Source: a virus. Taken from it: a stretch of DNA of 56,131 nucleotides. The position numbers and the translations under genes are program-made. The stretch is taken from the IMG/VR virus record IMGVR_UViG_3300002143_000137, one strand, 5' to 3'. The notes under the pieces are model-generated. The model saw only the letters and a list, made by a program, of their open reading frames with translations, made no database searches and was not told the DNA's origin. Below, one piece after another: positions 3,235 through 49,252 of this stretch (the stretch's first letter is position 1; the number at the start of each line of letters is the position of its first letter).

Positions 3235-3450
3235 ATGAGCTTACTGCTTGTAATCTTGGCTACTATCGCATCCATCGCCGCCCTCGGTGTCCATGGCCTT
3301 TGGGTCTTTTTAATTGGCTTAGGCTTATTGTCAGCCATAGAAAAAAAACACCCAGGGACGAACTTTGTCGAGGGTGCCGTTTCGATCATTGGCATTTTGA
3401 TTGTCGTAATGATGGCGGCGGAGATCCTTCTCCGCACCCTTCAAGGTTAA
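3235..3450 (+). CDS. Small hydrophobic membrane protein (71 aa, 2-3 predicted TM segments)
   Basis: MSLLLVILATIASIAALGVHGLWVFLIGLGLLSAIEKK...IIGILIVVMMAAEILL. No competing gene on the other strand. Stop overlaps the stop of the giant gene (TTAA). A hairpin at 3180-3212 lies upstream. Confidence 0.5.
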   Translation: MSLLLVILATIASIAALGVHGLWVFLIGLGLLSAIEKKHPGTNFVEGAVSIIGILIVVMMAAEILLRTLQG

Positions 3451-6400: not shown

Positions 6401-9400
6401 CCTTAGCCCGCCGCATTCTCGCATCCTTGGACATATCCAAGCCCTTAGCGTTAGCGGCATCCCACGCTAGTGAGCCTTTGCCGTTATCTTGGCCTAATTC
6501 ACGGCTGAACAAGTGCTGCTCACCTCGATCCCGGTTGTACTTATTGACAATATCATCTTTTGTAAGTATATTTTTTGGCAAGTCTTGACGCCGTTTAGGG
6601 GATTGTTCCCGTCCAGGCGCGGCTTTTGAAGCCCTGATTTCGATCAGGGCTTCTTCATTTCTGACATACAGCAAGCCCCCTCTTGAAATATCGCCCCACA
6701 AACGCTCCACTCCGCTAGAATTTTCGCCGTGGTGTTTCGGGGTAATCGTTTTTATCTCCCCTTCATTAATGCCAACCAGTATAGGCTCGCCCTCAGCAGT
6801 ACGAACCTCGATAACAACATTAACCTCCCCTTCCCCCTTTCCGGCACCTCGGGTATAAACGGCCTGCGGGTCAGCAAGCAATAGGGGCAAGTCTTCCAAA
6901 ACACTATAAGGCAAATCGCTGTGCTTATTCTGAATTGCCATGATACGTCGCTTGGTGATTTCTATCTTGCTGATTACTTTTAGCTCTCGAAGTATTAGCG
7001 GGGCTTTAACCGACAACACAAAATCCTGTTTATCAGCATTACGCATCAAGGATAATTTCTTACTCCACTGCGCCATCACTTTGTCGGCTTCGCTCGCTGC
7101 CTCACGATTGAAAACAGCATCGTCGAGATCGACACGACGGCGAGCCCGCTGCCCCTCTGCAAACGCATCTCCAATGCGGTACACCAAGTCTTTACCTTGA
7201 CGATGCGCCGACACATCGACATTAAAGCCAGCCCGTTTAAGTAAGCGCTGCAATGCCAAAACAATGCGATTCCACACTTTATCGGTAAAGGTAAGCTTCT
7301 CTTGGGCAATGCGCGCTAGGATTTCTTCGGCTTTTAGTTGGTCAGATCGGCCAGATTCTACGCGCTCAACTTCGTCCAAGACCGACGCAAGCTCGGGTGA
7401 ATCTTTGGCCGCATTACGTAGACTTGTAAGAAACTCGGCAGCGTGAACAGGATCAATAAAACCAATGCCTTTATGCACCAAGACCTCATGCTGCAAGGTT
7501 TCTTCGAGGTCGGCGAGGGAATCAAGTGCTTCGGTATAGACAAATAAGGTATCGGTTTTGGGGTCGTACCCTCCTTTGGTTCTGAATGGTGCTGGCGTTC
7601 CGTGCGCTTCTTCATGGGTGCGAAATACCTTTACGGTTACATCGTTGGCACCCTTATATTGCTTGAGGAATTTATTTATCGCAATCTTGGCCGCGCCCAG
7701 GCCTACACCTTTCGGCGTTGCGGCCCTCTTTAGCTCGGATGTGCGGCTGTAAAATATCCCCTCTTCTTTGTTCAGGCTGCCGCCTACCGCTGCATTCGAT
7801 TTACCACCGATAAACACATCCAGCACTCTCATGCCGATATTGTTTAGCGCCCTGGATGCGTTGATTGCCGCGTCAACTTCGTCGGCATCGATATTCAGGA
7901 TGGCGGTTTTGGCGCTGGCGTTATTCAGGGTTTCAAGAAGGCGCCGGTAACCGTCACCACGCAAGTCGGATAACTCTTCTGTCGTCATCGGCACAAACGC
8001 TGCTGGTGCATTTTGGGTATTCAGAAACAGGACGCCGCTCGGTAAATCCTTAACCGCCACGCGCGCAGTATCAGCTGATGTAATAGATGTTTGCTTGCTG
8101 CGGGCAAGGATTTTCGATTCAGTTACCGGCACCGTGCGCTTGCGCAGTAGCGGCTTAACCTTAATCGGGTTCCCGGTAGTGAGATCGTCAAAGAAGTAAG
8201 CGCCCGCGCCTTCACCCAGAATTACATGGCCCATCGTATCGATGCCGGATGGCTCCAGGGTACCGACGATTTTATCGGTAATCATGCGGTCAGCGTCGGA
8301 GGGCTTAGTCATTCCACTAGGGTGATTGTGGCCCAGGTAGATTTTGGCCGCGCCTGGAGTGGCCGCAACTGCGCCAGCTAACTCCTCAGGGTTAACGCTC
8401 GCGCTATCCATTGCGCCCTTGGTGTGACGAATAACCGATAGTGGCCGGTCGTCTTTATCCAAGACCAGGACAAGCATGTTTTCCTGGGCGTTTTTACGGA
8501 ATGATGAAAGGACGTGTGCCGCGTCCTGGGGAGATTTAACAAACTCGACGCCGGTTTTTACCGTGTCTACTTCTCGGAGTGCGGCTTTGGAATAAAACTC
8601 TGTGGCGGCAACTGATTTTTTGGCGAGCTGATTGAATAAGTCGCCCTGGGCTGGCTGCTGGTCAGCGGCCGGCTCGGTAATACGATTTGCACCACGTTGC
8701 CCGCGGCGTATGTCTTGGGTTTCTCGCTCATTGCTTGAGTATAGCGCTGATCCCGTATTTTCGGAAATAATCCCTTCGTCATTAACTTCAATGGTGTCAA
8801 TCAAGCCATCAAATGCCTTATTGATCGCCGCGCGCTCATCCCCTTGCGGGAACCATTTTGTAGCTGCCTCTCCATAAATGCCGTCTTCAGCGCCCAGATT
8901 CTTCCATGCCGCCGTAAGGTAGTCATTCCGCTTTTCATCCAGCCTTAACTTATCAAGCACATAGGTTTCAAATGCCCGCGCAAACATTTCGAGCCGCGTC
9001 GACCAATAGGGGTCTTTCTTCTTTCCGTCCATATCCCTTGCGTTGCGCCGGTACTCTGTCATGCCGCTTTGCTGGGGTTTGTGAGTTTCGGCAAACTTCT
9101 CAGCATCGACCGCGTACTCAATCATGCCCGCCGCGGTATCGGCATGAGTAAATTGATCCGCCGCAATCGCTCGCCCATATACCTCACTAGCAATCTCTCT
9201 GGCGGCGTTGATATTCTTGCCGACGAGCTGCTTAGTTTTGCCGAGGGCTACATAGTCGCCGCGATCACCCGCGCGCAGCTTATCAACAATGGCATTTAGC
9301 TTGTTTTGCTGGGCCTCGGTTGCGTTAGTCATCCATCGCTGCCAAGAGGCGACAATCCTATCAAGCGATTCCCGGCTGCTCGCCAGCGACGAAAGCCTGG

Positions 9401-12400
9401 CGGCCTCCATATCCTCGGCAGTCCTAATGACCTCAATCTTTTCCATGGCGCCAAGGATGGCTTTATAGGCCGCAACAATCTCTGGCCTGGCGTTGCTGCC
9501 CTTTAAGAGCCAATCCCTGTCTGCATGCTCACTAAGGAATGGCCCCTCCTGCCGAGCTAGGCCCGCAATTACACCGAAATGATGATCGACCGCATGGCCA
9601 AACTCATGGGCCAAGCTTCCTGCGCCCGCCGTTTTTGTAATATTGATTTCATTTAAACCGGGGACAAAGTGCGCCGCCGCGTGGCTGCCATGACCTTGAG
9701 CGCCAAAGGCAACGCCGAGCATTCCACCAAGCGACATTGACTCCGGTGGTACGCCCATCACCTCCGCCAAATCCAGGAAGGCATCATAAGCGGCGTTAGT
9801 GTGCTGCTGCCGGTCTGCTGCATTCATCCAGTTGCCAAAATTCACCCCCCGGAAACCAAACGTAGTCCGAAGCTGGTCGGCCGTTACATCGCTTTCTCTT
9901 CGCGCCTCACCAATTCGCTCGACGTGATCCATTGAAACGCTTGGCTCCTTGAAAGATGCCTCTCGTTCAACCTTCGCCAAGTCTCTCGCCGCCTGAATCG
10001 CCGCCTCCTGCGTGTCGTGCTCGCTTAATACGCTACGGAAGCGCTTTTTACTCACCCCCCATTTATCACCCTTTTGGGTGACCGTATATTGTTTCTCCCA
10101 CGCTTCACGCTTAGCGGGCCATCCCTCGGATATTTCCTTAACCGCTTTACGCAAATCAGCAGAGCCAATATCGGCGCGCTTTATAAACCTGTTGCCGCCA
10201 ATGGCGAGGATATTGCGATTACCCTCCGGGTTTTTCTTACCCCAGCGAGCGCCGTTATCGTTTTCAGGAAAGGCCGCCTCGTATATTTTGTGAGTTATCG
10301 CTTTTAATGAGTCTGCTACCGACTTGCTGGCTCGCTGCTGTGCCAGATAGTCAGACCCGGCAGACTGTATTACTTGCAAAGACTCGAGAATTTTTTGCGC
10401 ATATTCCCGCGACCCAGCGTAATCCATGACCACGTCGCGCACTTTGCTGGTTGTTTCAACGAATGCCCGGACACCCTCCTCGCTTTTGCTGTCGGGCTTC
10501 ACTGCCATAGAGTCATAAATGTGCTTCAAGGTGTACGCGGCCAGTGGGTTCATGCCATCATTAATCAGCGCCTCATAATCCGGCTTTGGCCAAATTTTCG
10601 CCTTTACGGCCATCTTCACTTGTTCGGCGTCATTCATTCCCTCGAAGTCACGCATTGTTAGGCCGGTTGATCTGCGACGATTAGCTCCCAGCTCCTCGCC
10701 ACTATCGGCTAATTTCTTTTGAGGCTCAGTCTTGGTTTCTTGATTGCCGGCGCTGGATTTTTCAGTTGATCGACTGGAGCCCTTGCTGCTCTTGGCTTTC
10801 AGCTCTTGATCGGCTTTTGATCCTTTCGCGCCCCGGTCAACATCAGCGCTCGGAAACTCCTTAACCTGCTCCAGCAGCTCAGTGATGGGCGCATCTAAAC
10901 GAATTACCCGCACTTCCTCGTTGTTGTCGCGCTTGGCCATCCATTGGTGGTGACCATCAAGCACATGGCCGTCGCCGGAAACGAGGATAGCGCGGTCGCC
11001 GCCAGTGAAGTCCTTGGCTTTGGCCACCTTAGCTTCGGAAAACTCTTTTTGTGTTGGCTTGAGCGAGCTGGCTGCCACCGTCTCTTCGGTACCGGCAATG
11101 CCGCGCGCCTTGAGGAAGTTTGCCAGGGCGCCGCGGTGCTCAGCCTTAACTTGCGGCATCTCGTCGCGAGGAATATTCAGGGTACCGGAGTCGGTAGAGA
11201 ATGCCGTCCACTCCTTGTCGATCTTGGCGCCGCGAATGTCTCGACCGCGCGCCAACTTCTGTATGTTGCGCAAGGCAACAATATTTGAGTTGTGATCGCC
11301 TCGGTACTGCTTGGCTAGCGCATTATATTCGTCGATTTCATCGGCGGATCGTATAAGCGCGTTCTCAAGCGCTTTTTTGGCGGAAAGCGGCTTAAATGTG
11401 TCGCTCGTTAAGCTTTTTGCCGCAGGCCCGTCAAACAAAGAGTTTTGGCCCCGAGAGTTGGCAATATCAGCCGGCGCGCTGGAGCCAGACAAAGTGAAGT
11501 CGTTAAGCTCTTTGTCGGCGTCGAGTTTTGCGGATATTGCGGCTTCTGCGGATTTTGCGGAGGCTTCGGCGTCAGCTTTCGCTTTCGCCTGGTCGACTAG
11601 CTCTTGCTCGGTGTACTGGTTGAGGCTGAAGTTGTCTTGGTTCCCAGTTTGCCCAAGGCCTTCAGCGCTCCCTTCGCCTCGGTTGGCAGGCTCTCCGTTG
11701 GCGTTCCGTTCATTAGCTCCGTCATTAGCGACTGCCCCGCCTTTGTTCCCAGCACCTTGCGCGTTAAATTGCTGCTCATTGTTAAATGCCTCTTCAGTTA
11801 AGGTAGCGGGCGATCTTTTTTCAACCGCGCCAAACATATCTTCTGCTGGTTTTACGGACTCATTGTATAGCGCGTCAGCTAGTGCTGTCAGCTTGTCGCC
11901 AATCGCTTTCGCTGACCGAATATTTTCAGAGAACATTTGCAGTATAGGCCATGTTTCCGGGGCCACTGTCATATCGGATTGCTGAATAAATTCTTGAAGG
12001 CTTCGGCCTTGCCGGCGCGCATTCACCGCTATGGCTGCCGCCTCAGACACAATCGCCCTTACGTCATAGTTACCCTGGCCCTTGAGGCGAGAAAGCGGCC
12101 CCGCTGCTGCCAATAAGCCAGACATAACCGTGCGCGCTTCGGGGTCGGTTGCTTGTGCCTGCAATCGAATCAGCTCGTCGTTATCAAAAGACGCAGCAAA
12201 TATTGCGTTTTCCATGCGCTCATAGGCGCGCTTGGACGGCAATTTTCCGTCACGCAGGCCGCCTCGCTCCGACTCCGGCATAGCGTTTATAAACTGTTCT
12301 GCCGCTTCTTGCGTTAGCTGCCCATCAGGGCCAATGATCGCGGTACCGGCCACATTGATCCGCCGCGCATCGTTACGCGCCTGCTCTACAGGGGATAGTT

Positions 12401-14927
12401 CAGAGACGCCGCTAATGTTTGACTCGTCACCAATATCATTCGTAATTTCAGAGCTGGGCATTACCCGCACCAGCACCGGGTTTTTCATGCGACGGATTAC
12501 ACCCGGGTCGATTCCGTGCGTATTGTCCCCGGCCATCTCTTGCTTGTATTGGCCGCCTTGGCCACTGCTGTGTGCGTGCTGCAGCCCGGTTACTCGGCCA
12601 TTACCAGCAATCGCGCGAGACTTGCCTTCCATGCCGGCATCGTAGCCTTTAACCGGCGAGCCGTTTATGTCATTGCTCGACAACAACTGGTCGGCCTCAA
12701 CAACGGCATATTGAACTGGTATTTTTCTGCCGCTACTGGAAGTGGCCACGTCTTTACGGCCTAAATTTTGGCGAGGAATATCCGCGCCCGCCTCAACCAC
12801 TGGCGCGCCGGCCGATAAGTCACGCGAAAAACTCAATCGAGAATAATCTGGATTACTCGCGATACTGCGCATTTGCGCGATACTTTCCGGCGTGGAGCGG
12901 TCGCGGTTTTGTAGTACCGGCTTGTCGGCTTGCGCGCTTACCTGGCTAGCTTCGCTATTGGTGGTTGCGCTCAAGTCGATTGATTCTGGCGCGGTCGGCA
13001 CTCTCTCGGTCCGAGTGCGGCCGCGTCCTGGCACGCCAGAATTTTGCGCGCCAATCTGCCCTTCATAAGCAGCAGTATTTTCGCGCTGCTTGCGCGCCCT
13101 TTCCTGCTCGGCGTCGTAGGTTTCCTGGGCATCGCCGCGCATATCATCATACCGGCGTTGGCGCACATCGTCGGGCTCGGTACCGAAAACGTCGCTCGTC
13201 TTGCCTAGCTTTAGTGTGCCGTCAAGATCCTGGCTAATGCCTGGCTGTTTGCCGGGCTTTGGCTCTGCCGGAATGTGCTCGCCATCCAGGATGTGTTGGC
13301 CGATTTGCAAAGGATCTTTAATGGCTTGACCATCATAAGTCTCACCTTGCGCGCTCGGGCTCCCGGCGACGGGCATCGTCGCACCGGGGATAAACTCGCC
13401 TTTCGTGGCGCTGACGGCTGGCAGGCCGCCATTACCGCCACCGTCATTACTGCCAGTGTTGTCATAGAAGCGAGCCAGAATGTCGTCGGCGTTTTGATAA
13501 AGCCGGCTTGCCATGCCCTCCTTACCTTCAGCCTGGAGTTTTTGCGCGCGGCGATAGAGGTTTCGTGCACCAGTTAAGACGGTTGCGCCTTCTGTGTCGC
13601 CAGCGCGCTCAAGAATAAGGATGTCGCCATCGAGGCCGGATAATCGGCTTTTACGGCTGTTGTTTGATTCCTTAACCGTTGCGCCTGGTGTCATTCCAGC
13701 CGTGCGCTGGTCGCTGCTCGCGGGCTTGCCGGAAAAGGCGCGCTCCACTTCGGCGGCATTCAGCCCGTCAAGCTCGGCTTGGCGCTGTCGCAGCATCTCC
13801 ATTTCTGCCGGGTCGGTAAAAATACGCGACCGGCGATTCTGCATGTCTACTGCTGCGGCGTCCGATCCCGCCAGCTCTTGCTCAAGCGCATCGCCACCGG
13901 CATCCGCTGCTTTTTTCCGGGCCTCGTCGACGCGACCGATAGCGCCCAATGGAGCGCCCACGCCAAAGCCGACTACAGCGCCGGTTAGCGCTTGCGGCAG
14001 TACGTTATCGTTGGTAATTGTCGGGTCAATATTGCGCGCGGCATTGTTAACAGAAAGTGCTGCCGAGCCTTCTTCGACAAACTCCTGAGCCATCTCCGTT
14101 GAGCCGACTAGCGCAGCGTTACCCAGGCGGGACTTGCCAAGAGTCCCTTTCAATAAGCCGTCAAATACCTTGCCCATTACGGCGTTCGATAAGAAATTGA
14201 CTGCGGCCAGTTCAGGATCGCGCATAACTTCGGACGCGGCAGTGTCAGCTAAATGCTTGCGAGCATTGGTGGCGTTTGTAATTTCGTCCTGGCTCTCGTC
14301 GTAAAAATCCGAGTTCCACAGATCCAGGAAAGCCTTGCTTTGATACAGGGTTTCGTCGGGGATATTCATCACGGTAGAGCGCGCATCTTCGCCCGCCATA
14401 CCTTGCGCCATGCCGCCACCGACAGCGCCAGATCCCATTGCTCCGGCTGCAGAAGCTAAGCCTCGCCCGGCGCCAAGCATTTTGGCACCCACGCCGACTG
14501 CACCACCACCAATAAGCGTTGGGATCGTGGTGCCCAAGCCCTGCGCGGTCATCATGGCTAAAGTTCTGGCATTCGCGCCTTCGCCAAGCTCCAGTCCGTT
14601 TTCGCCGTTTCGGAAAACTTCTTTCGTTAGCGCTTCCCGGCCTTCTGGGCTAATGGTTTCACGCTGGTCATCAGCCCAATTATTAAAGACCTCTGCGACG
14701 CCCTGGCCGTAGCCGGTAAATTCCTGAGCTAGCGAAAACAGGCCGCCGACACCCTGAAGCGCGCCGCGCTGAGTCATATCCACTAAATCGCCGGTAATGC
14801 CCTGACGGTCTTTGCTCAATGCTTCGGGAGATACTGCGCTGGACTGCGCAATATGCGTGTTCAGAAAATTGATTTTTTCTTCGTCGGAAAGGTCGTCAAA
14901 GCCGGGGATAAACGGATTATTGCTCAT
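3447..14927 (-). CDS. Giant multidomain polyvalent virion protein (3,826 aa)
   Basis: One uninterrupted ORF, the last gene of the late operon. Multiple enzyme motifs are listed as sub-features below. Confidence 0.95.
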   Translation of the reverse strand: MSNNPFIPGFDDLSDEEKINFLNTHIAQSSAVSPEALSKDRQGITGDLVDMTQRGALQGVGGLFSLAQEFTGYGQGVAEVFNNWADDQRETISPEGREALTKEVFRNGENGLELGEGANARTLAMMTAQGLGTTIPTLIGGGAVGVGAKMLGAGRGLASAAGAMGSGAVGGGMAQGMAGEDARSTVMNIPDETLYQSKAFLDLWNSDFYDESQDEITNATNARKHLADTAASEVMRDPELAAVNFLSNAVMGKVFDGLLKGTLGKSRLGNAALVGSTEMAQEFVEEGSAALSVNNAARNIDPTITNDNVLPQALTGAVVGFGVGAPLGAIGRVDEARKKAADAGGDALEQELAGSDAAAVDMQNRRSRIFTDPAEMEMLRQRQAELDGLNAAEVERAFSGKPASSDQRTAGMTPGATVKESNNSRKSRLSGLDGDILILERAGDTEGATVLTGARNLYRRAQKLQAEGKEGMASRLYQNADDILARFYDNTGSNDGGGNGGLPAVSATKGEFIPGATMPVAGSPSAQGETYDGQAIKDPLQIGQHILDGEHIPAEPKPGKQPGISQDLDGTLKLGKTSDVFGTEPDDVRQRRYDDMRGDAQETYDAEQERARKQRENTAAYEGQIGAQNSGVPGRGRTRTERVPTAPESIDLSATTNSEASQVSAQADKPVLQNRDRSTPESIAQMRSIASNPDYSRLSFSRDLSAGAPVVEAGADIPRQNLGRKDVATSSSGRKIPVQYAVVEADQLLSSNDINGSPVKGYDAGMEGKSRAIAGNGRVTGLQHAHSSGQGGQYKQEMAGDNTHGIDPGVIRRMKNPVLVRVMPSSEITNDIGDESNISGVSELSPVEQARNDARRINVAGTAIIGPDGQLTQEAAEQFINAMPESERGGLRDGKLPSKRAYERMENAIFAASFDNDELIRLQAQATDPEARTVMSGLLAAAGPLSRLKGQGNYDVRAIVSEAAAIAVNARRQGRSLQEFIQQSDMTVAPETWPILQMFSENIRSAKAIGDKLTALADALYNESVKPAEDMFGAVEKRSPATLTEEAFNNEQQFNAQGAGNKGGAVANDGANERNANGEPANRGEGSAEGLGQTGNQDNFSLNQYTEQELVDQAKAKADAEASAKSAEAAISAKLDADKELNDFTLSGSSAPADIANSRGQNSLFDGPAAKSLTSDTFKPLSAKKALENALIRSADEIDEYNALAKQYRGDHNSNIVALRNIQKLARGRDIRGAKIDKEWTAFSTDSGTLNIPRDEMPQVKAEHRGALANFLKARGIAGTEETVAASSLKPTQKEFSEAKVAKAKDFTGGDRAILVSGDGHVLDGHHQWMAKRDNNEEVRVIRLDAPITELLEQVKEFPSADVDRGAKGSKADQELKAKSSKGSSRSTEKSSAGNQETKTEPQKKLADSGEELGANRRRSTGLTMRDFEGMNDAEQVKMAVKAKIWPKPDYEALINDGMNPLAAYTLKHIYDSMAVKPDSKSEEGVRAFVETTSKVRDVVMDYAGSREYAQKILESLQVIQSAGSDYLAQQRASKSVADSLKAITHKIYEAAFPENDNGARWGKKNPEGNRNILAIGGNRFIKRADIGSADLRKAVKEISEGWPAKREAWEKQYTVTQKGDKWGVSKKRFRSVLSEHDTQEAAIQAARDLAKVEREASFKEPSVSMDHVERIGEARRESDVTADQLRTTFGFRGVNFGNWMNAADRQQHTNAAYDAFLDLAEVMGVPPESMSLGGMLGVAFGAQGHGSHAAAHFVPGLNEINITKTAGAGSLAHEFGHAVDHHFGVIAGLARQEGPFLSEHADRDWLLKGSNARPEIVAAYKAILGAMEKIEVIRTAEDMEAARLSSLASSRESLDRIVASWQRWMTNATEAQQNKLNAIVDKLRAGDRGDYVALGKTKQLVGKNINAAREIASEVYGRAIAADQFTHADTAAGMIEYAVDAEKFAETHKPQQSGMTEYRRNARDMDGKKKDPYWSTRLEMFARAFETYVLDKLRLDEKRNDYLTAAWKNLGAEDGIYGEAATKWFPQGDERAAINKAFDGLIDTIEVNDEGIISENTGSALYSSNERETQDIRRGQRGANRITEPAADQQPAQGDLFNQLAKKSVAATEFYSKAALREVDTVKTGVEFVKSPQDAAHVLSSFRKNAQENMLVLVLDKDDRPLSVIRHTKGAMDSASVNPEELAGAVAATPGAAKIYLGHNHPSGMTKPSDADRMITDKIVGTLEPSGIDTMGHVILGEGAGAYFFDDLTTGNPIKVKPLLRKRTVPVTESKILARSKQTSITSADTARVAVKDLPSGVLFLNTQNAPAAFVPMTTEELSDLRGDGYRRLLETLNNASAKTAILNIDADEVDAAINASRALNNIGMRVLDVFIGGKSNAAVGGSLNKEEGIFYSRTSELKRAATPKGVGLGAAKIAINKFLKQYKGANDVTVKVFRTHEEAHGTPAPFRTKGGYDPKTDTLFVYTEALDSLADLEETLQHEVLVHKGIGFIDPVHAAEFLTSLRNAAKDSPELASVLDEVERVESGRSDQLKAEEILARIAQEKLTFTDKVWNRIVLALQRLLKRAGFNVDVSAHRQGKDLVYRIGDAFAEGQRARRRVDLDDAVFNREAASEADKVMAQWSKKLSLMRNADKQDFVLSVKAPLILRELKVISKIEITKRRIMAIQNKHSDLPYSVLEDLPLLLADPQAVYTRGAGKGEGEVNVVIEVRTAEGEPILVGINEGEIKTITPKHHGENSSGVERLWGDISRGGLLYVRNEEALIEIRASKAAPGREQSPKRRQDLPKNILTKDDIVNKYNRDRGEQHLFSRELGQDNGKGSLAWDAANAKGLDMSKDARMRRAKAMGFDTDTVLYHGTRPGVDIKEFSRQHSPDGIYLTPDPTYAEGFTNELFGDSGAAGAIYPVFAKLENSYTVTASYGSPEWESFVNRGLDMLEIEAQGYDSAVLVDEETGDVDQVIVINPANIRSVNAAFDSAEDGSSNILYSRIAEPVSDREAIMAAKLGMAQDNRSPIARAKDSMKDWWREVMDGFIPSVADKFYDLKKINAEAYMRARMSTNTGAALAAALGHATPEWHEDGILKAKRGSKGLLDVLKPIEGDVNGWVSWMVAKRAEGLMASDRENLLTEQEIATLLDVSPETAALYQSVADEWKAYNGAMLDLMAGGNLITQASADHFKQDAYYIPFYREVTDETGEVDVVASFTKRGLSHQKDGIEKLKGGTSNLQDPLKNMLMNVTRAIDASVKNNALLRIVNEVDTGSENSVLSVAHEGNRSGNNVIRVRRDGQNEYYRVHDIGVLGALTAMNDMQSTAITRLLGIPKQLLTAGVTATPTFMLRNAIRDITASWMQSEDVKWQASKALGQFRDALKIDDDTIDMMMAGSAFMGGYRYSNDATSNAQALREQLRKKGMSTESVDGYMSSLFDGSKQSWEWYREKGERFENMARQKMFRDALDSGHSYFDAAYRAKDLMDFSLHGRAGIMHFLIQTVPFMNARIQGLYKLGRVVGNQKNMAELTQMVAFKGALVAAATLALYAINEDDEDYQALRDWDKDANWHIFLDGEHLRIPKPFELGLMFSTIPERAARLANGDDDARVFFKSVGSNMLETLSMNPMPQAVMPITEAAFNYDFFRGRSIDNQSDLGNLPGSRKSLYTSALATGMGAMLEDLGVTGDMASPKRIDHIIKGYTGSMGISLLSATDAVVHMLSGNTTPAMNRRDYPVIGWFARGDDPVGTKYSDDFYRLVSRANQAYSTIRDPNTDAERRAEIIEDYGTELKARKMLVGANMRLSMLRKQQDAVYRDSQLTSEQKRERLNKIQQIMNEIQKRAVDRVSA
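6020..6400 (-). other. ADP-ribosyltransferase-like module of the giant protein (about aa 2845-2970)
   Basis: VLYHGTRPGVDIKEF...DGIYLTPDPTYAEGF...VLVDEETGDVDQVIVINPANI. This is the H-Y-E type ART pattern seen in polyvalent proteins. Confidence 0.55.
7300..7640 (-). other. Second HExxH module of the giant protein (about aa 2430-2540)
   Basis: LEETLQHEVLVHKGIGF at nt 7471-7491. Confidence 0.35.
8190..8600 (-). other. RadC-like JAB/MPN module of the giant protein (about aa 2110-2245)
   Basis: KIYLGHNHPSGMTKPSDADRMITDKI. The HNHPSG motif is at nt 8313-8335. Confidence 0.75.
8940..9880 (-). other. Zincin-like metallopeptidase module (LPD1-type) of the giant protein (about aa 1685-1995)
   Basis: FGFRGVNFGNWMN...GAGSLAHEFGHAVDHH...EMFARAFETYV. 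Confidence 0.6.
10865..11180 (-). other. ParB/sulfiredoxin-like nuclease module of the giant protein (about aa 1250-1355)
   Basis: LKPTQKEF...AILVSGDGHVLDGHHQWMAK. Confidence 0.7.
12400..12910 (-). other. Possible additional ParB-superfamily module of the giant protein (about aa 675-840)
   Basis: IPVQYAVVEADQLLSSND...GKSRAIAGNGRVTGLQHA...NPVLVRVM. Confidence 0.4.
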
Positions 14928-14963: not shown

Positions 14964-14994
14964 ATCCTAGGTAAGTCGAGGTTTGCGCGGAATC
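14964..14994 (-). promoter_or_regulatory. Late promoter-like motif copy 1 (upstream of the giant gene)
   Basis: Minus strand reads AGATTCCGCGC, 17 nt, TAGGAT. Confidence 0.45.
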
Positions 14995-19241: not shown

Positions 19242-19275
19242 GTATTAGGCCAATTTCCAGTGTTGCGCGGAATCT
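19242..19275 (-). promoter_or_regulatory. Late promoter-like motif copy 2
   Basis: Minus strand reads AGATTCCGCGC, then 18-20 nt, then CCTAATAC. Confidence 0.4.
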
Positions 19276-28920: not shown

Positions 28921-29940
28921 TTAATAAGTCTGGCCACGTCGACGCTTCATATCCCCGATAACATCGGTGCGCGTCTTCGGTGGCGGTTCGTCGTGTCCCA
29001 GTGTCATGGCTGCATTTGCGCCACTCACTGCCACCATCGCTTGCCGCTTTCTCTGCGAACGATCTGACAAACCGGCGTTGCCGCTCTTGGCTTTAAGCCA
29101 ATTGCGTACTCTGTTGCCCGCCTCTTGCATGATTTGGTAGGGCTCTAACTCCGGGTTTTCATTCGCTATTTCTAGCGTGAATCTGTCAGCCATTCCGAAT
29201 AGTTCCGGGTCGCTGGCAACATCGTTAAATTCAGCTTTAAACTTGCTTGCGGCACTTTGCAGTGCGCTTACTCGTTCACGCTGTTCAATTGCAGCATTTG
29301 CCGCTTGCTGCGCGCGCTGGTCGATTTCATCGTGACTTATCGCGTTATGGGTAGGCTGCTGCCGCCCGGCTGCAAATAATTTCGCCAGTGCTTTTTTGGC
29401 TGTTTCGTCATCGCCTGAATAAATTGCTTCCAGTGCGGTGCCTACTTCAGCTTCAACGTCATCGCTCGCGCCCGGTGTACCGGGTGGCTTGCTTTGCTGC
29501 TGCGCTTGTTGAGAGCGCAGCAAAAATTCCTGTTCTCGTTGCCGTAATTCCAAGTCCCTTCGTTCTAGCTCCCGCTCCATCTGGGATGCTGCCGCCAAGC
29601 GTTTATCGCCTGCCAAATACTTCTGAGCGTTGGCCACCATCTTAGATTTTGGTAGGTCTATTTTCTGACCATCGACAATCAAGTGGTAAACATCGTCTTC
29701 GTCATCCGGCTGCTCGCGCTTCGGTTCCAGCTCGGCAGTAGTGGTACCTTCACCATCGCCATCGCCCCCCTCTGCTCGCTCCTCGCGACGGCGGCGAACC
29801 AGGTCTTGCATTGCCGCGCTACGAGGATCTATGCCCGCGTTAACTTCCGCTTCAGCGCTTCCATTCTCGCTTGAAGTATTTGCCTCCATTTCATTGCGCG
29901 GAATGTCCCCATCTATATTTTTTGTGCTGTCTCTCGACAT
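28921..29940 (-). CDS. Scaffolding protein (339 aa)
   Basis: Acidic, E/Q/A/R-rich and coiled-coil-like. Lies between the portal and capsid genes. AGGAG SD present. Confidence 0.7.
   Translation of the reverse strand: MSRDSTKNIDGDIPRNEMEANTSSENGSAEAEVNAGIDPRSAAMQDLVRRRREERAEGGDGDGEGTTTAELEPKREQPDDEDDVYHLIVDGQKIDLPKSKMVANAQKYLAGDKRLAAASQMERELERRDLELRQREQEFLLRSQQAQQQSKPPGTPGASDDVEAEVGTALEAIYSGDDETAKKALAKLFAAGRQQPTHNAISHDEIDQRAQQAANAAIEQRERVSALQSAASKFKAEFNDVASDPELFGMADRFTLEIANENPELEPYQIMQEAGNRVRNWLKAKSGNAGLSDRSQRKRQAMVAVSGANAAMTLGHDEPPPKTRTDVIGDMKRRRGQTY
29875..29909 (-). promoter_or_regulatory. Late promoter-like motif copy 3 (inside the scaffold gene 5' end)
   Basis: Minus strand reads GGACATTCCGCGC, 17 nt, AATACT. 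Confidence 0.3.
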
Positions 29941-32942: not shown

Positions 32943-34501
32943 CACGCATACTCAGGTTCGTAATACTCGCCGCCATATAACGCGCTATCGTCGCCAGGCT
33001 CGTAGCTCATTGCTGAATCACCAATTGGCACCGGCTCTGCAAAGGTCAACGCCACCGCATCGCCCTCGTCCGGAGAGCGCAGGAGACGCTTTTTCATCTC
33101 CTCTTTTTTCTCAAGCTGCCAGCGGCCATTGCTGTCAAACTTGTACTGCACGGCGCCAATGTCGCTCGCCAGGCTGTCGGTGTCCGGGATCTTTACCGGC
33201 GCATCCTTGAGCCATTCCCGAAACTCGCCCCACATTTCAGTGCGCTTGTTAAAGTAGTGCTTGTCGTCAATCGCTCGCTCGGAGCTATTCACCGCTACTA
33301 CAATGTCACCAAGACCTAGCTCGCGAAGCCGGTCGACAACACCAGCACCCACACCAATCACATCGACAAATATCCGTTTAAAGCGGTACTGGCGATGCAG
33401 CACCATGACCTCGCCTACCGTGTCCATCGTGCTGTACTTGAGCTTGCGCTTGACCCAGTGAACAACGCGGCCCTCGCGAAACGCGAAAGTAGTCGCGTCA
33501 TCACCAAAGCGTGCTACGTCGACACCCAGCACCGGAGCGCCAAACGGGTCGGCGCTCGCCTTCCTTGCGCGCTCAATCAAACTTGCCACTATGAAAGCAG
33601 CGTCCGCACTTGCGCGGAATGCTTCTTGTGGCGTGAAGGGGTACTCTTGCTTGAATAATTCAGGGCCAAGCTCGGCAATTTTGTCGCGGCGCCACGCCAT
33701 TTGCTCAAGGTCTAAACCGTAAAGCCTGGCGATTTCTTCCTCGTCATCATCTAGCTTTATCGGCTTATCAAGGCGGTAGCCGTCATCCCAGTGCCACGGC
33801 ACAAACACCGCTTCAAAGTCGCTATCCCCTTTCTCGGCCTTCACCCACTGCTCGTGGAAGTAGTTACCGATACCGTTCGCCGTCGACTCCAAGAATATTT
33901 CCGTGCCTCGAGCTTCCCGGCCCATTGGAATCGCCTGCATCAAGCCCGCAGCATGCTCCTCGGCGTGCGGCCAGAACGCCACCTCCGAGCCATGCAAAAA
34001 TTGCAGCGTTGAAGATCGGCCAGCGCCTTTATTCCCCGCGGTACCGACTTTAAAAGCACTATTGAGCCCGTCGAATACCAATTCCTTAGCGTTACTTGCA
34101 CCAAGCTGTGGCTTGACCATTGACGGCAAGTGCTCGTAATACCGCTCGGTCATCTCGAATAAGTTATCGGTCGCCGCTTGTTCGTGCGTAAGAATGTAGG
34201 AGCGCACACCGCGGCGGCGCGTGACCTTCCAAATTGCGCGCCCTTCGATATACGTCGACGCCCCTTGCTGCCGACCCTTGAGCAAGATCATTCGCACATA
34301 GCCGCGCGCTTTAAGCTGAGCTTCGGCTTTGTCGTGGATGTAGAGCTGCGCCCGGTTGAGCGTTAACGGCTTTATCTCGCCGGCTTTAGGTCGAATGCGC
34401 AGGCATTGCTCGGCGTAGAATTGAAAATCCTGGTCAAACGCCTGGTTTAAACGCTTCTGGCGCTCAATCAGCTCGGGGTCAAGGTCAATGCGCCTTCCCA
34501 T
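32942..34501 (-). CDS. terL: Terminase large subunit
   Basis: Walker-A-like LLKGRQQGAST plus a nuclease-like C-terminal half. Overlaps the terS stop. Confidence 0.85.
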   Translation of the reverse strand: MGRRIDLDPELIERQKRLNQAFDQDFQFYAEQCLRIRPKAGEIKPLTLNRAQLYIHDKAEAQLKARGYVRMILLKGRQQGASTYIEGRAIWKVTRRRGVRSYILTHEQAATDNLFEMTERYYEHLPSMVKPQLGASNAKELVFDGLNSAFKVGTAGNKGAGRSSTLQFLHGSEVAFWPHAEEHAAGLMQAIPMGREARGTEIFLESTANGIGNYFHEQWVKAEKGDSDFEAVFVPWHWDDGYRLDKPIKLDDDEEEIARLYGLDLEQMAWRRDKIAELGPELFKQEYPFTPQEAFRASADAAFIVASLIERARKASADPFGAPVLGVDVARFGDDATTFAFREGRVVHWVKRKLKYSTMDTVGEVMVLHRQYRFKRIFVDVIGVGAGVVDRLRELGLGDIVVAVNSSERAIDDKHYFNKRTEMWGEFREWLKDAPVKIPDTDSLASDIGAVQYKFDSNGRWQLEKKEEMKKRLLRSPDEGDAVALTFAEPVPIGDSAMSYEPGDDSALYGGEYYEPEYA

Positions 34502-35228: not shown

Positions 35229-35264
35229 AATCTACTTGGTAAAAATTTTGCGCGGAATGTCCTA
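35229..35264 (-). promoter_or_regulatory. Late promoter-like motif copy 4 (upstream of terS)
   Basis: Minus strand reads AGGACATTCCGCGC, 17 nt, TAGATT. Confidence 0.45.
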
Positions 35265-37097: not shown

Positions 37098-37727
37098 TCA
37101 ATGTAAGACGGCTGTATGCCCGTCTAATGCAATGTTGGAGTTAATTGTTACTGTCACTGTGGTGATATTCACCACCACGCCCACCTCGTCACCAGCTCCG
37201 TTTAAAACCGCCACACTCGGGTATGCAATCCCCGATTCAGTGGTAGGTATCGACGCCGAAAACCCTGTTAACGCCTTTAGATAAACCTTGCGCGGATGAC
37301 GCTCGACGTCAATGAGGATTGTGTCTGCACTAACCGCATGACCGACTTCTGCTAAATACCCGGTGATTGGTCGCGTCTGGGTTAGCGCGCCATTCATGCC
37401 CGCATAAATTACTTGACCTGCAATCCAGCTCCACGCCGGGTTCGATAGCGTGCCTCGATACACCACTTCAAAGAGCGCGCCCGGTAAGACAGACTGCGCC
37501 GAGATTCCTAGTATTTCCCTAGTATTGGGATTGTTAGCGCTTGCTCGGTAGGCGGACTTATTGGCTTGCTGATAGACGATTTCGCCTAGCCCAATCGCTT
37601 CGCCAGCCGCTAGCCTTAGGGTTGATCCTGGCAGTAAGCCATCGACAGCCGAAGACGATCCCCGCTCACTTGCGTGTGAGCGGACGACGTTCGAGAATCT
37701 TGAGCCAGAGGATCGTGTCATGGACAC
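37098..37727 (-). CDS. Hypothetical structural protein (209 aa)
   Basis: First long ORF of the cassette upstream of the terminase genes. Confidence 0.5.
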   Translation of the reverse strand: MSMTRSSGSRFSNVVRSHASERGSSSAVDGLLPGSTLRLAAGEAIGLGEIVYQQANKSAYRASANNPNTREILGISAQSVLPGALFEVVYRGTLSNPAWSWIAGQVIYAGMNGALTQTRPITGYLAEVGHAVSADTILIDVERHPRKVYLKALTGFSASIPTTESGIAYPSVAVLNGAGDEVGVVVNITTVTVTINSNIALDGHTAVLH

Positions 37728-37729
37728 GA

Positions 37730-37765
37730 ATATTGCTAGGAATTATTGTGGCGCGGAATGTCCTG
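37730..37765 (-). promoter_or_regulatory. Late promoter-like motif copy 5
   Basis: Minus strand reads AGGACATTCCGCGC, 17 nt, CAATAT. Confidence 0.35.
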
Positions 37766-37909
37766 GCTACGCGGTGAGCCATCAACAGTGATGGTTTTTT
37801 CCGAGATGATTTTTAAGACGACCTCGCCAGCACCACTGTCTACGACAGTAATGATAGTGTCGTCGTCAATGCGTAGGGACTGGCCGATACCGCGCGTGAG
37901 AGATAGCAT
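37736..37909 (-). CDS. Divergent CsrA-like small protein (57 aa, below the ORF-track cutoff)
   Basis: GGAGGA lies 6 nt before the ATG. MLSLTRGIGQSLRIDDDTIITVVDSGAGEVVLKIISEKTITVDG aligns without gaps to the phage CsrA, with 16 identities over 44 positions. Confidence 0.6.
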   Translation of the reverse strand: MLSLTRGIGQSLRIDDDTIITVVDSGAGEVVLKIISEKTITVDGSPRSQDIPRHNNS

Positions 37910-37988
37910 GATTGATCCTCCATGATCATTTGCCGAATTACTGTATATTGATTAAAGCAAATGATCTGGCAAGCATCAATGTTGCAGT

Positions 37989-38037
37989 AAAAATAACCCA
38001 TCGTTGCGCGGGACAGAGCCCGCGAACTGGGTGGGTT
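37989..38037 (-). terminator. Rho-independent terminator separating the nin-like region from the late region
   Basis: Minus strand reads AACCCA..CGCGGG-CTCTGT-CCCGCG..TGGGTT followed by ATTTTT. Confidence 0.7.
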
Positions 38038-38043
38038 ATGCCG

Positions 38044-38253
38044 CTAGCAAGGCTCCATGCCTTTTTTGAATATGCGCCACTTTTGGTCAGAGCTGTGCAT
38101 TGGTGTTTTCCGTTGCACATATTCGCCGGAATCGGTCAGGCTCCTTATCATCATATCGCCAGCAGGCTCGTAATCGTCCCGAATGTGAGCGGTTAATACC
38201 CCTTCCCTCCCGCTGCTATCAATTCGATTTTTAAGTTGGTCAATTTCACTCAT
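38044..38253 (-). CDS. Hypothetical protein (69 aa)
   Basis: ORF only. Confidence 0.4.
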   Translation of the reverse strand: MSEIDQLKNRIDSSGREGVLTAHIRDDYEPAGDMMIRSLTDSGEYVQRKTPMHSSDQKWRIFKKGMEPC

Positions 38254-38599
38254 TAAATTTCAACCCTTCTACAGTTAACACACCATCGACCACTCTTGCC
38301 TTAACCGTGCAATCTTTGTCCTTGCCAGCAGGGTCTACACCAATAAATACGCGGCCCTCATTAGAATACTTGCTGTACCCACCCCGAATAATCTCAATGG
38401 TTTTGGGGTGCGCGTAAATTGCACCATATAGCTCAACAACTGGGCGCGTATAAATAAAGCCAAACCGCTTATCCCACTTCTTTTGAATACGCGCATGGTA
38501 AGATTTGCGCATCCATTTGCGGCGACGATGCACTCTAGCCGACTTGCTATCAATCTCATTAAGGTAAGGATTTTCTATTAGCTTTACGCCGCCTATCAC
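38246..38599 (-). CDS. Hypothetical protein (117 aa)
   Basis: ORF only. Confidence 0.45.
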   Translation of the reverse strand: MIGGVKLIENPYLNEIDSKSARVHRRRKWMRKSYHARIQKKWDKRFGFIYTRPVVELYGAIYAHPKTIEIIRGGYSKYSNEGRVFIGVDPAGKDKDCTVKARVVDGVLTVEGLKFNE

Positions 38600-38967
38600 C
38601 GCCAGCCCTCCACAATAATGCCACCCGGCACTAACTGCTGAAGCACCGCAGCCCGCTCGTATATTGTCGGTTGCCGGAGCCAGTTAGCCCCATAAATACT
38701 CTTCGCCTTAATTTCACAAACACTACTGATTTCAATCCATTCACCCCTCGCAGCAATGAGCACTCTCGCCAGCGGAGGATTATTAGGCAGAATGCCCTCC
38801 CCATATTCCCTTACGCGCCACCCCCACCAAGTCTTTTGCACTCCGCATGACTTATCGCCACTTGCATAACGCCGCTTCACAGCGTCGTGGGTGAATTTAT
38901 ACGAAAAATGCTCTAATAGCATTAGTGCTGCGGCTATTACTGCAAGCAGCGCCATAAATTCAGCCAT
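38596..38967 (-). CDS. Hypothetical protein with an N-terminal TM segment (123 aa)
   Basis: MAEFMALLAVIAAALMLL. Confidence 0.45.
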   Translation of the reverse strand: MAEFMALLAVIAAALMLLEHFSYKFTHDAVKRRYASGDKSCGVQKTWWGWRVREYGEGILPNNPPLARVLIAARGEWIEISSVCEIKAKSIYGANWLRQPTIYERAAVLQQLVPGGIIVEGWR

Positions 38968-39229
38968 GCTCTTGCCTCTCCTGCCTCTTTCGCCGCTTAC
39001 TCAGGTTTATCGGGCCAAGCACACTAAGTACCCCTCTCTGCAAACATCCGCAACTTTGGGTTCTCCCTGAGCGCAACATCGAGCCAATCTTTATGGTTTC
39101 CTCGCCGCAGTCGCACTTGCATAACCATTGTGCTTTTCTGTGCTTATTGGATGCCGCTCTCTCAATAACAACTAATCGGCCAAATCGCTTTCCGCTTATA
39201 CTCATTACCCGCCTCTCGTCGGTTTCCAC
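38960..39229 (-). CDS. Cys-rich zinc-finger-like protein (89 aa)
   Basis: WLCKCDCGEE...SCGC. Confidence 0.5.
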   Translation of the reverse strand: METDERRVMSISGKRFGRLVVIERAASNKHRKAQWLCKCDCGEETIKIGSMLRSGRTQSCGCLQRGVLSVLGPINLSKRRKRQERQEHG

Positions 39230-48494: not shown

Positions 48495-49076
48495 ATGAGC
48501 CCAATACTGTTTTTCGACACCGAAACCACTGGCATACCTGCTTGGAAAGACCCTAGCGATTCCGAGCACCAGCCACACATCGTCCAGCTCGCCGCCATCG
48601 TGTGTGATGAAGACACCGGCAAGGTGCTTAGTATCATGGACGTGATTGTGCGGCCTACTGACGACTGGGAGATACCCGCAGAAACCACAGCGATTCATGG
48701 GATTACCCCGGAGATTGCTGAGACGTATGGCGTGCCGGAGCATCTTGCCCTGGATATGTTTTTAAACCTATGGCGCGGAAGCGTGTGTGTCGCGCACAAC
48801 TCCCCGTTTGACCAGCGCATCATTCGTATTGCAATGAGCCGGTTCAATAAAAACGAGGCAATGAAAGCCGCATGGAAATCGAGCGACGGCCACTTATGCA
48901 CAATGAGCCAAGCGCGGCGAATCATGGGCGGCAGCAAGCCGCCGAAGCTTAGCGAAGCCTACGAGCACTTTACTGGCAAGGTGCTTGAAGGCGCGCACTC
49001 AGCAATAGCAGACGCCAGAGCTTGCATGGAAATTTACTTTGAAATGAAAGGAAAAGGAGCAGCAATAGCATGTTGA
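48495..49076 (+). CDS. DnaQ-like 3'-5' exonuclease
   Basis: [10 protein letters not shown] (ExoI), [10 protein letters not shown] (ExoII), HSAIADARA (ExoIII). Confidence 0.85.
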
Positions 49077-49252
49077 TACTGACGCGCCGTATTGGCGAAA
49101 CCATGATGATCGGTGATGACGTAACCGTCACCGTTCTGGGCGTTAAAGGTAACCAGGTTCGCCTTGGCGTGACTGCGCCAAAGGAAGTGAGCGTGCATCG
49201 CGAAGAGATTTACGAGCGCATTCAAAACGAGAAAGAGGCACAGCCAGCATGA
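49070..49252 (+). CDS. csrA: Carbon storage regulator CsrA/RsmA homologue (60 aa)
   Basis: [55 protein letters not shown]. Confidence 0.95.

Follow-up and report, generated by a model that had tools for sequence, protein, structure and literature searches.

CsrA is among the main post-transcriptional switches of the Gammaproteobacteria, acting on carbon storage, motility, biofilm formation and virulence, and its known antagonists comprise decoy RNAs together with the proteins FliW and CesT. Each RNA-binding surface of the CsrA dimer combines strand beta1 of one chain with strand beta5 of the other (PMC7652899), and Arg44 (R44) is essential for RNA binding in canonical CsrA (PMC7652899; PMC7366521). 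About 1.2% of phage genomes carry a CsrA homolog (PMC7366521), and known phage and plasmid representatives include the rsmM-type genes of Pseudomonas phages, a Vibrio phage CsrA and the plasmid-encoded RsmQ, which heterodimerizes with host Rsm proteins in a two-hybrid assay (PMC9928087); the homologs discussed in PMC7366521, PMC9144972 and PMC9928087 are all treated as RNA-binding regulators. In Lessievirus (Bcep22-like) phages, a CsrA moron such as JC1 gp47 lies in the structural region, and its Pfam match covers residues 1-44 with a weak E-value (PMC9144972). Here we analyze the 56,131-nucleotide (nt) IMG/VR virus record IMGVR_UViG_3300002143_000137 (the whole stretch of DNA, hereafter the window), in which a temperate phage carries a small gene, designated mini-CsrA, whose product belongs to the CsrA superfamily by sequence but is without R44, A36-P37, E46 and the C-terminal helix, by which CsrA is functionally defined.

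The mini-CsrA open reading frame (ORF) occupies positions 37736-37909 of the minus strand and encodes, from an ATG at 37909, a product of 57 amino acids (aa), MLSLTRGIGQSLRIDDDTIITVVDSGAGEVVLKIISEKTITVDGSPRSQDIPRHNNS. An initial annotation of the window had proposed it as a hidden, divergent CsrA-family gene and had named a PF02599 profile search, a fold prediction and conservation in related phages as checks; all three came out positive and uphold the proposal. The protein matches Pfam PF02599 with 29.2 bits (gathering score 27; E = 9e-7) over residues 1-42, the match spanning only model positions 1-42 out of 53, and its family relatives score 25.2-35.7 bits, on both sides of the cut-off of 27. 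It also matches the PHROG 'CsrA-like regulator' (E = 2.5e-5), and hhalign aligns it with a canonical CsrA alignment at 98.9% probability (E = 4e-17), colinearly over residues 1-53, while the family profile matches RsmE (E = 6e-5) and CsrA among the sequences of solved structures. BLASTP aligned mini-CsrA to the phage's own CsrA without gaps, with 16/42 identities (E = 4e-8); the 16 identities over 44 positions counted in the initial annotation are equally correct, because positions 43-44 contribute none. Its account of individual residues also held, L2, L4, R6 and V42 being kept, R7 and R44 both replaced by Gly, and the VHREE segment lost. The AlphaFold2 monomer model contains strands at residues 11-14, 18-24 and 30-36, corresponding to beta2-beta4, and a Foldseek search of the PDB with this model returned CsrA, RsmA or RsmE as all of the top 15 matches, the first 14 at a probability of 1.00 and the 15th at 0.72, with a template modeling score of ~0.55 and a root-mean-square deviation of 2.6 Å over 42 residues for the best of them. 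Phage CsrA-like proteins likewise ranked top in a search of a viral structure library.

Mini-CsrA appears to follow canonical CsrA, RsmA and RsmE in its beta1-beta5 order, and it has their hydrophobic core pattern as well as their N-terminal 'MLxLTR.GxS.xI.D' signature. The twelve alternating hydrophobic positions that build the interleaved CsrA beta-sandwich (2, 4, 8, 12, 14, 20, 22, 30, 32, 34, 40 and 42) are all retained in the window protein. In an alignment of 10 canonical CsrA sequences, the invariant residues are L2, L4, T5, R6, A36, P37, R44 and E46; the window protein has L2, L4, T5 and R6 on beta1, with R7 changed to Gly, but Gly44 in place of the required beta5 Arg44, S36-E37 in place of A36-P37, and P46 in place of E46. 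Across the family, position 44 is occupied by D in 21 sequences, P in 5, G in 4, R in 1 and N in 1, A36-P37-K38 is replaced by T-D-Q, and R6 is mostly Leu or Val. Beyond residue 44 the sequence is Pro/Ser-rich and unconserved, and the AlphaFold2 model shows no C-terminal helix, so that the functional core comprises 44 aa, as opposed to ~53 aa plus a tail in canonical CsrA. The conserved CsrA-fold core (predicted beta1-beta5) occupies codons 1-44 (37778-37909, minus strand), as supported by the Pfam and hhalign matches, the AlphaFold2 model and the substitution rates, whereas codons 45-57 and the stop codon (37736-37777, minus strand) form an unconserved tail that enters a regulatory motif belonging to the next gene. 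The core carries a net charge of -2 to -10 throughout the family apart from the L081 protein P0002 (+1), with -3 for the window protein, compared with 0 to +3 in canonical CsrA; mini-CsrA is acidic rather than basic, most members strongly so. Judged from these residues, the fold and the dimer strands appear to have been kept, the beta5-side RNA contacts are lost, and the window and L081 proteins are the least derived members.

The metagenomic relative L081, whose early genes are 80-93% identical at the protein level to those of the window phage, has a mini-CsrA gene at the same place, directly upstream of the ortholog of the 209-aa gene that follows mini-CsrA in the window. Over codons 1-44, 27 of 33.3 synonymous sites differ between the two genes, giving a proportion of synonymous differences (pS) of 0.81, which is saturated, against a proportion of nonsynonymous differences (pN) of 0.17, and all 78 pairs among 13 members of the family give pN/pS values of 0.16-0.74, uncorrected distances that understate the constraint. 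Because synonymous sites are saturated and replacement sites constrained, mini-CsrA is a gene under selection, and a chance ORF or decaying pseudogene is excluded. The L081 ORF is 78 aa long, extending 21 codons beyond the 57 of the window, and the two tails share only 'DIPR', which is the DNA motif gACATTCCGCGC read in the mini-CsrA frame; tails vary in both length and sequence across the family (46-66 aa). In the database protein of L081 (P0002) the start has been called too far upstream, the true start being the aligned ATG behind an identical gatcatggaggatcaat.

An exhaustive HMMER search and two alignment-seeded searches gathered ~34 protein clusters of 46-66 aa with the same 44-aa core (family consensus MLVISLKVGESIRIDDNTIITLIEKWTGEVALQVETDQVITIDD), on contigs from many samples and in prophages of marine Gammaproteobacteria, with some members automatically labeled 'carbon storage regulator', as in Zhongshania guokunii and Z. 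marina. On a hidden Markov model (HMM) of the acidic mini-CsrA clade built without the window protein, the latter scores 50.1 bits, against 33.0 on a canonical CsrA HMM, and the corresponding scores of Escherichia coli CsrA are 23.3 and 109. These scores, the presence of relatives in unrelated temperate phages and the absence of the gene from the close relatives L001 and L002 speak against the suggestion of the initial annotation that the gene is a degenerate paralog of the phage's own CsrA, of which it is no recent copy. Mini-CsrA is instead a distinct subfamily, a small independent cassette of temperate phages of aquatic Gammaproteobacteria.

Searches of 50,697 GenBank phage records with the region DNA, the mini-CsrA protein and the family consensus recovered no member, and the family is known only from metagenomes and prophages. 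A word-indexed protein search with the window protein returned only the query itself, an exact-sequence contig look-up gave no match, back-translated scans of viral contigs with either mini-CsrA or the product of the downstream gene found none, and among 80 terminase-related viral loci no CsrA-like ORF was present besides that of the window. In the literature, coverage of which was incomplete, we found no description of an acidic CsrA subfamily devoid of R44 and helix, of its invariant CsrA-site ribosome-binding site or of a protein-level CsrA mimic, nor any account of truncated CsrA proteins, CsrA morons or anti-CsrA proteins of phages that covers this family, and the family is apparently undescribed.

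The boundaries of the cassette are revealed by L001 and L002, which come from different metagenomes, have terminases 81% identical to that of the window and are its closer structural relatives. Upstream of mini-CsrA, the window contains an intrinsic terminator (37987-38039, minus strand), formed by a stem-loop at ~37993-38039 followed by AUUUUU (-26.3 kcal/mol, z = -2.6), with a long, GC-rich stem whose internal loops caused a simple terminator scan to miss it. L001 and L002 keep the terminator sequence, with the ACATTCCGCGCC motif immediately adjoining it, and the statement of the initial annotation that the ORF lies just downstream of a strong terminator is thereby confirmed. The terminator closes the upstream (early/middle) transcription unit and is the upstream boundary of the cassette rather than part of it. 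In a three-way DNA alignment, L002 lacks a block of ~235 nt located between the T-tract of the terminator and the motif, and L001, from an independent metagenome, has the same junction without a mini-CsrA gene; in both, no more than ~10 nt separate the conserved terminator from ACATTCCGCGCCA and the orthologous late gene. The cassette, with an approximate extent of 37770-37986 (minus strand), is therefore, in the window and L081, an insert between genes that are adjacent in close relatives, as morons are.

Within the ~235-nt block, both the window and L081 contain a candidate extended -10 promoter, a ribosome-binding site and the ORF. The candidate sigma-70-type promoter (37951-37979, minus strand) consists in the window of TTGATG (37979-37974), a 17-nt spacer and TGc-TTTAAT (extended -10, 37959-37951), and its TGCTnTAAT element is kept in L081 (TGcTCTAAT) although nearby synonymous sites are saturated; other family members have TGCTATATT or TATATT 11-14 nt upstream of the hairpin described below. 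On the basis of selection, profile and fold matches and this junction, we hold with high confidence that the ORF at 37736-37909 is a real, divergent CsrA-family cassette gene.

Elsewhere in the family, mini-CsrA occupies classic moron positions. In L083, L087 and L153 it stands at the prophage edge beside the host queA-tgt genes, convergent with tail-fiber genes; in L088-L090, circular phage forms, it lies between the integrase and an Acyl_transf_3 gene in the same orientation; in L086 it is at the prophage end in a Zhongshania genome; and in a P2-like myovirus (L154, L155) it is found on the opposite strand between tail-fiber and sheath genes. L083, L087 and L153 are bacterial contigs of 78-765 kb holding different prophages at the same chromosomal site beside queA-tgt, with mini-CsrA as the outermost prophage gene, ~340-400 nt from queA. 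A conserved 111-aa protein, 66-92% identical among loci, adjoins mini-CsrA in three cases (L082:1920-2255, L086:9626-9961 and L152:182-517); Pfam gave no match for it, and the window lacks a counterpart.

The most conserved feature of the whole mini-CsrA family is a hairpin at the ribosome-binding site. The Shine-Dalgarno (SD) sequence of the window gene, GGAGGA at 37921-37916, is separated from the ATG by exactly 6 nt (TCAATC), in agreement with the initial annotation, and is contained in the element U-GAUC-AUGGAG-GAUC-A (37913-37928, minus strand), which the minimum-free-energy fold forms as a 4-5 bp stem closed by the 6-nt loop A-N-G-G-A-G. GAUC-ANGGAG-GAUC stands directly before the start codon in every member examined, and GATCANGGAGGATC is invariant in 14/14 distinct family loci, with all four bases (U, C, A and G) represented at N, while almost no information resides in its upstream flanks and the synonymous sites next to it approach saturation. 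This invariance is not an ascertainment effect, because ten of the 14 loci were found via protein similarity alone. In 98 fetched loci (~1 Mb), no occurrence of the pattern lies outside mini-CsrA ribosome-binding sites, the window containing one match where 0.06 are expected. When the pattern was extended by ATGCT, it gave 7 matches in 2.9 million viral contigs, 7/7 of which precede mini-CsrA genes. A scan of 241 million metagenome records gave 45 matches, of which 5 precede mini-CsrA and 6 precede canonical csrA genes (82-84 aa). The latter suggest that the hairpin is an autoregulatory element of long standing in some csrA lineages, retained by the mini-CsrA family. Canonical csrA genes with the identical hairpin GATCAAGGAGGATCA, and with VHREE present, were seen on metagenome contigs L110, L112, L131, L134 and L136.

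The consensus obtained for CsrA by SELEX is RUACARGGAUGU, with GGA in a mostly 6-nt loop and stems of <=4 bp, and CsrA sites that overlap the SD block translation, as when E. coli CsrA represses its own (PMC7652899). The mini-CsrA hairpin combines a CANGGANG core, GGA in a 6-nt loop, a ~4-bp stem and overlap with the SD, and is on these grounds predicted to be bound by CsrA. The window as a whole is not enriched in CsrA sites, the 10-mer WCANGGANGW matching 5 times against 4.1 expected, and no late-leader target stands out; Rfam and tRNA scans of the window returned no matches, and hence no CsrB/RsmZ-like decoy RNA of a known family.

The window phage also encodes a canonical CsrA of 60 aa (49070-49252, plus strand) in its early block, which matches Pfam CsrA with 92.8 bits and has all of L2, L4, T5, R6, A36, P37, R44 and E46; it is a possible regulator of mini-CsrA, partner of it, or both. 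Such canonical CsrA-like genes occur in 89 of the 50,697 GenBank phage records. Both CsrA types are present in two unrelated phages, the window and L151; in L151 the canonical CsrA gene belongs to the early region and the mini-CsrA gene lies past the integrase. The canonical csrA start overlaps by 7 nt the end of an upstream 193-aa exonuclease-like ORF (48495-49076), and its leader (49040-49076, plus strand) contains two GGA motifs (AAAGGAAAAGGAGCA) that may be autoregulatory sites.

Mini-CsrA resembles canonical CsrA in being carried by mobile elements (PMC7366521, PMC9928087). Unlike JC1 gp47, which has a portal-capsid position in phages of Burkholderia hosts, it is found elsewhere in the genome, and tblastn detected no similarity between the two. 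Parallels are also offered by two sets of CsrA proteins with a single functional site. Engineered heterodimers carrying R44A on one subunit (Mercante et al. 2009) cannot fully repress glgC according to PMC7652899, owing to the loss of two-site bridging. The predicted CsrA:mini-CsrA dimer would be like these in having one intact and one dead beta1/beta5 surface; unlike those laboratory constructs, mini-CsrA would be a natural, separately encoded phage subunit whose pairing is predicted. The second set comprises single-chain tandem CsrA proteins, L094:7746-8396 (from a Lysobacter metagenome-assembled genome) and L098:7098-8396 (from a viral contig), in which the N-domain has an intact beta1 and Asp at the R44 position, and the C-domain a degenerate beta1 and an intact VHREE, so that they look like natural one-site pseudo-dimers. 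Tandem proteins (L094, L098 and P0007) have a degenerate domain with Asp at the R44 position, as most mini-CsrAs do ('ILDD' or 'VTDD' there, 'ITVDG' or 'ITIDD' in mini-CsrAs), and over residues 1-22 the N-terminus of the L094 protein shares 64% identity with the window protein. In contrast to mini-CsrA, their halves are fused and chromosomal, and the degenerate domain keeps A36-P37; no moron context or ribosome-binding-site hairpin was seen at the tandem loci. Single-chain proteins of two or more CsrA domains were also noted as P0005, P0007 and P0008.

The account of mini-CsrA that we favor, with a confidence just short of even, is that its translation is gated by CsrA and that its product then acts on CsrA itself, probably via mixed dimers. 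The first part is the firmer and we consider it moderately probable: because the SD sits in a hairpin that matches a high-affinity CsrA site and is the most conserved feature of the family, translation is probably CsrA-gated. High levels of free CsrA would repress mini-CsrA translation and sequestration of CsrA would release it, the gating CsrA being that of the host in every case and, in the window phage, possibly also the early-expressed canonical phage CsrA.

The second part, antagonism of CsrA through mixed dimers, is tentative and, taken by itself, doubtful. Mini-CsrA would target the Csr system as a protein, the likeliest route being association with a CsrA subunit. A CsrA:mini-CsrA dimer would have one dead site, made of CsrA beta1 and mini-CsrA beta5, and at most one live site, made of mini-CsrA beta1 and CsrA beta5, to which the window protein could contribute the L2, L4, T5 and R6 that it keeps. 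A two-handed, bridging repressor would thereby become one-handed, and CsrA control would be weakened. By analogy, the RsmQ heterodimers, the one-site R44A dimers, the tandem proteins of L094 and L098 and the two phages with both CsrA types speak for such mixed dimers. The result could be a double-negative loop, in which low CsrA allows mini-CsrA to be made, CsrA is further weakened and the low-CsrA state is reinforced. In its fullest form, which we think fairly unlikely, mini-CsrA would be a natural 'poison subunit', an RNA-blind, acidic, 44-residue CsrA fold that is repressed by CsrA and locks the lysogen in a low-CsrA state. Like FliW and CesT, it would lower CsrA activity by means of a protein and not a decoy small RNA, but those proteins have unrelated folds and bind the finished CsrA dimer, whereas mini-CsrA has the CsrA fold, would be a subunit or mimic, and shows no sequence similarity to FliW or CesT.

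Several observations weigh against this account. With regard to gating, the hairpin stem never varies, so that covariation lends no support to an RNA structure, and its two GATC sequences are Dam sites, whose conservation could operate at the DNA level, for instance through Dam methylation; a strong SD combined with chance is excluded for the family as a whole, not for a single locus; and only one GGA hairpin is present in the leader, where many CsrA targets have at least two sites. With regard to expression, a promoter scan did not call the cassette promoter, which has T at position 2 of its second hexamer and was read by eye, and called instead TAGCCA-16-AATAAT, which spans a late-associated motif; furthermore, no terminator follows the mini-CsrA ORF in the window, so that its transcript would enter the late genes, which is awkward for a gene expressed in lysogens. 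With regard to pairing, the CsrA dimer is very stable and mixed dimers would need co-translation, and beta1 and beta5 are not formed or are unpaired in the AlphaFold2 monomer model (predicted local distance difference test, 72), as is expected because a strand-swapped fold was modeled as a lone chain. The other mini-CsrA loci have no canonical phage CsrA within ~8-10 kb, which makes a phage CsrA partner not general, co-occurrence being seen in 2 of ~12 contexts, a count that rests on partial contigs. Finally, the window and L081 proteins are the least acidic of the family (-3 and +1) and keep T5-R6, making some RNA binding possible.

The best-placed alternative retains CsrA only as the timer of translation and assigns to mini-CsrA, as an acidic homodimer with the CsrA fold, a target outside the Csr system, such as a host or phage protein in lysogenic conversion or exclusion. 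This is possible but on the whole improbable. Moron positions, among them those beside an O-antigen-type acyltransferase gene in the L087-L090 loci, would suit such a role, as would the strongly negative charge of the core, the lack of a nearby canonical phage CsrA in most mini-CsrA phages and a set of family-specific residues that CsrA pairing leaves unexplained (R/Y13, D15-D16, T18, W26 and D43). The complete CsrA dimer core, however, fits pairing with CsrA equally well, two phages carry canonical and mini-CsrA together, and no candidate partner is known, the 111-aa neighbor being present in 3 loci only and not in the window.

We regard it as unlikely that mini-CsrA is still an RNA-binding protein, reading GGA hairpins or a variant of them as a homodimer by an altered mode and autoregulating at its own SD. 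The window and L081 proteins keep L2, L4, T5 and R6, and that of L081 also R7 and a charge of +1, and residual RNA binding is somewhat more plausible for this branch than for the acidic clade. Gene and hairpin are found together in the entire family, canonical csrA genes with an identical hairpin exist, and in E. coli CsrA is an autorepressor that acts on translation at the SD (PMC7652899). Nevertheless, R44 is essential in every canonical CsrA tested (PMC7652899; PMC7366521) and is replaced here by Gly, and by Asp in most members; A36-P37, E46 and the C-terminal helix are lost; and with core charges as low as -10, RNA binding is implausible in the majority of the family.

The proposal of the initial annotation that links mini-CsrA to the late region involves a motif, ATTCCGCGCMA, that has 6 minus-strand copies in the window against 0.21 expected (14983-14993, 19263-19273, 29894-29904, 33610-33620, 35248-35258 and 37749-37759); the 11-mer, ATTCCGCGC(A/C)A, is usually preceded by (G/A)AC or AG. 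Four of the six copies lie 28-99 nt upstream of the starts of a giant ORF, a 582-aa ORF, the small terminase gene and the 209-aa gene, and the remaining two within the large terminase gene and at the 5' end of a 339-aa ORF, so placed that the motif is probably a late promoter or activator element. The last copy, ATTCCGCGCCA (37749-37759, minus strand), does overlap the 3' end of the mini-CsrA ORF, as had been pointed out, and L001, L002 and L081 likewise have the motif upstream of the corresponding ortholog; since L001 and L002 possess it but no mini-CsrA gene, it is a part of the downstream gene's surroundings and not of mini-CsrA.

Regulation of late expression by mini-CsrA, via the late leader RNA or this motif, is accordingly highly improbable. 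Mini-CsrA immediately precedes the late block, and its final codons run into one of the six copies of the motif, but the overlap is confined to the unconserved tail, and motif, terminator and late gene are intact in L001 and L002 without the mini-CsrA gene. The protein is acidic, and most members are too acidic to bind nucleic acids; the family does not head late operons elsewhere and resides in unrelated phages (sipho-like, P2-like and with T7-like terminases), at prophage ends or in tail clusters, on the strand opposite the late genes. A phage-specific late-regulatory role is disfavored because the phages that carry mini-CsrA differ in morphotype and late-control system. Under our preferred account of CsrA-gated translation and action on CsrA, its position at the head of the late block would be an accident of the cassette landing in a permissive gap after the terminator, and mini-CsrA probably plugs into host CsrA control and not into phage late transcription. 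As for a non-functional remnant or chance ORF, the shortness of the ORF, a Pfam score barely above the cut-off, the unconserved tail and a close relative without the gene carry negligible weight against saturated synonymous sites with constrained replacement sites, a conserved start codon, SD and hairpin, and ~34 clusters with the same 44-aa core.

The window phage is temperate, with integrase, RecT/exonuclease, NinB-like, terminase, portal, capsid and tail-fiber genes, and among cultured phages its terminase places marine Vibrio and Pseudoalteromonas phages nearest to it (40-47% identity). The 209-aa gene (37098-37721, minus strand), the first of the structural/late block, encodes a tail-associated protein with matches to PHROG 4368 and 30025, its N-terminal part matching a domain of larger phage proteins. 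Its true start is likely the ATG at 37721 rather than the listed GTG at 37727, as judged by the aligned ATG starts of the orthologs in L002, L001 and L081 (MTKSTGSR / MRSTTGQR vs MTRSSGSR), and no SD is visible in the start region (37640-37727). Tail-fiber-like, terminase, portal and capsid genes follow downstream. Codons ~13-20 of the 209-aa gene form a strong hairpin (CCGCUCAC...GUGAGCGG), and L081 and L001/L002 have a hairpin at the same position with a different stem sequence, which may be a conserved RNA element inside the coding region.

On the other side of the conserved terminator, the genes upstream of it (38044-39229 in the window, minus strand) differ among the window, L001, L002 and L081, and in the window include an 89-aa HNH-endonuclease-like ORF (38960-39229); the surroundings of the terminator look like a mosaic hot spot. 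The giant ORF (3447-14927, minus strand) encodes 3826 aa with matches to several large phage-protein PHROGs and with methyltransferase-like and repair-like segments, and is reminiscent, by description only, of the DarB-like giant virion proteins of Bcep22-like podoviruses.

The automatic label 'carbon storage regulator' implies an RNA-binding function that, judging from their residues, mini-CsrAs very probably lack. If the account favored here is true, mini-CsrA would be a candidate new class of Csr modulator, by which phages rewire a global regulator of their hosts through subunit mimicry, and as a poison subunit it would parallel, as a protein encoded by phages, the CsrB/RsmZ decoy RNAs.

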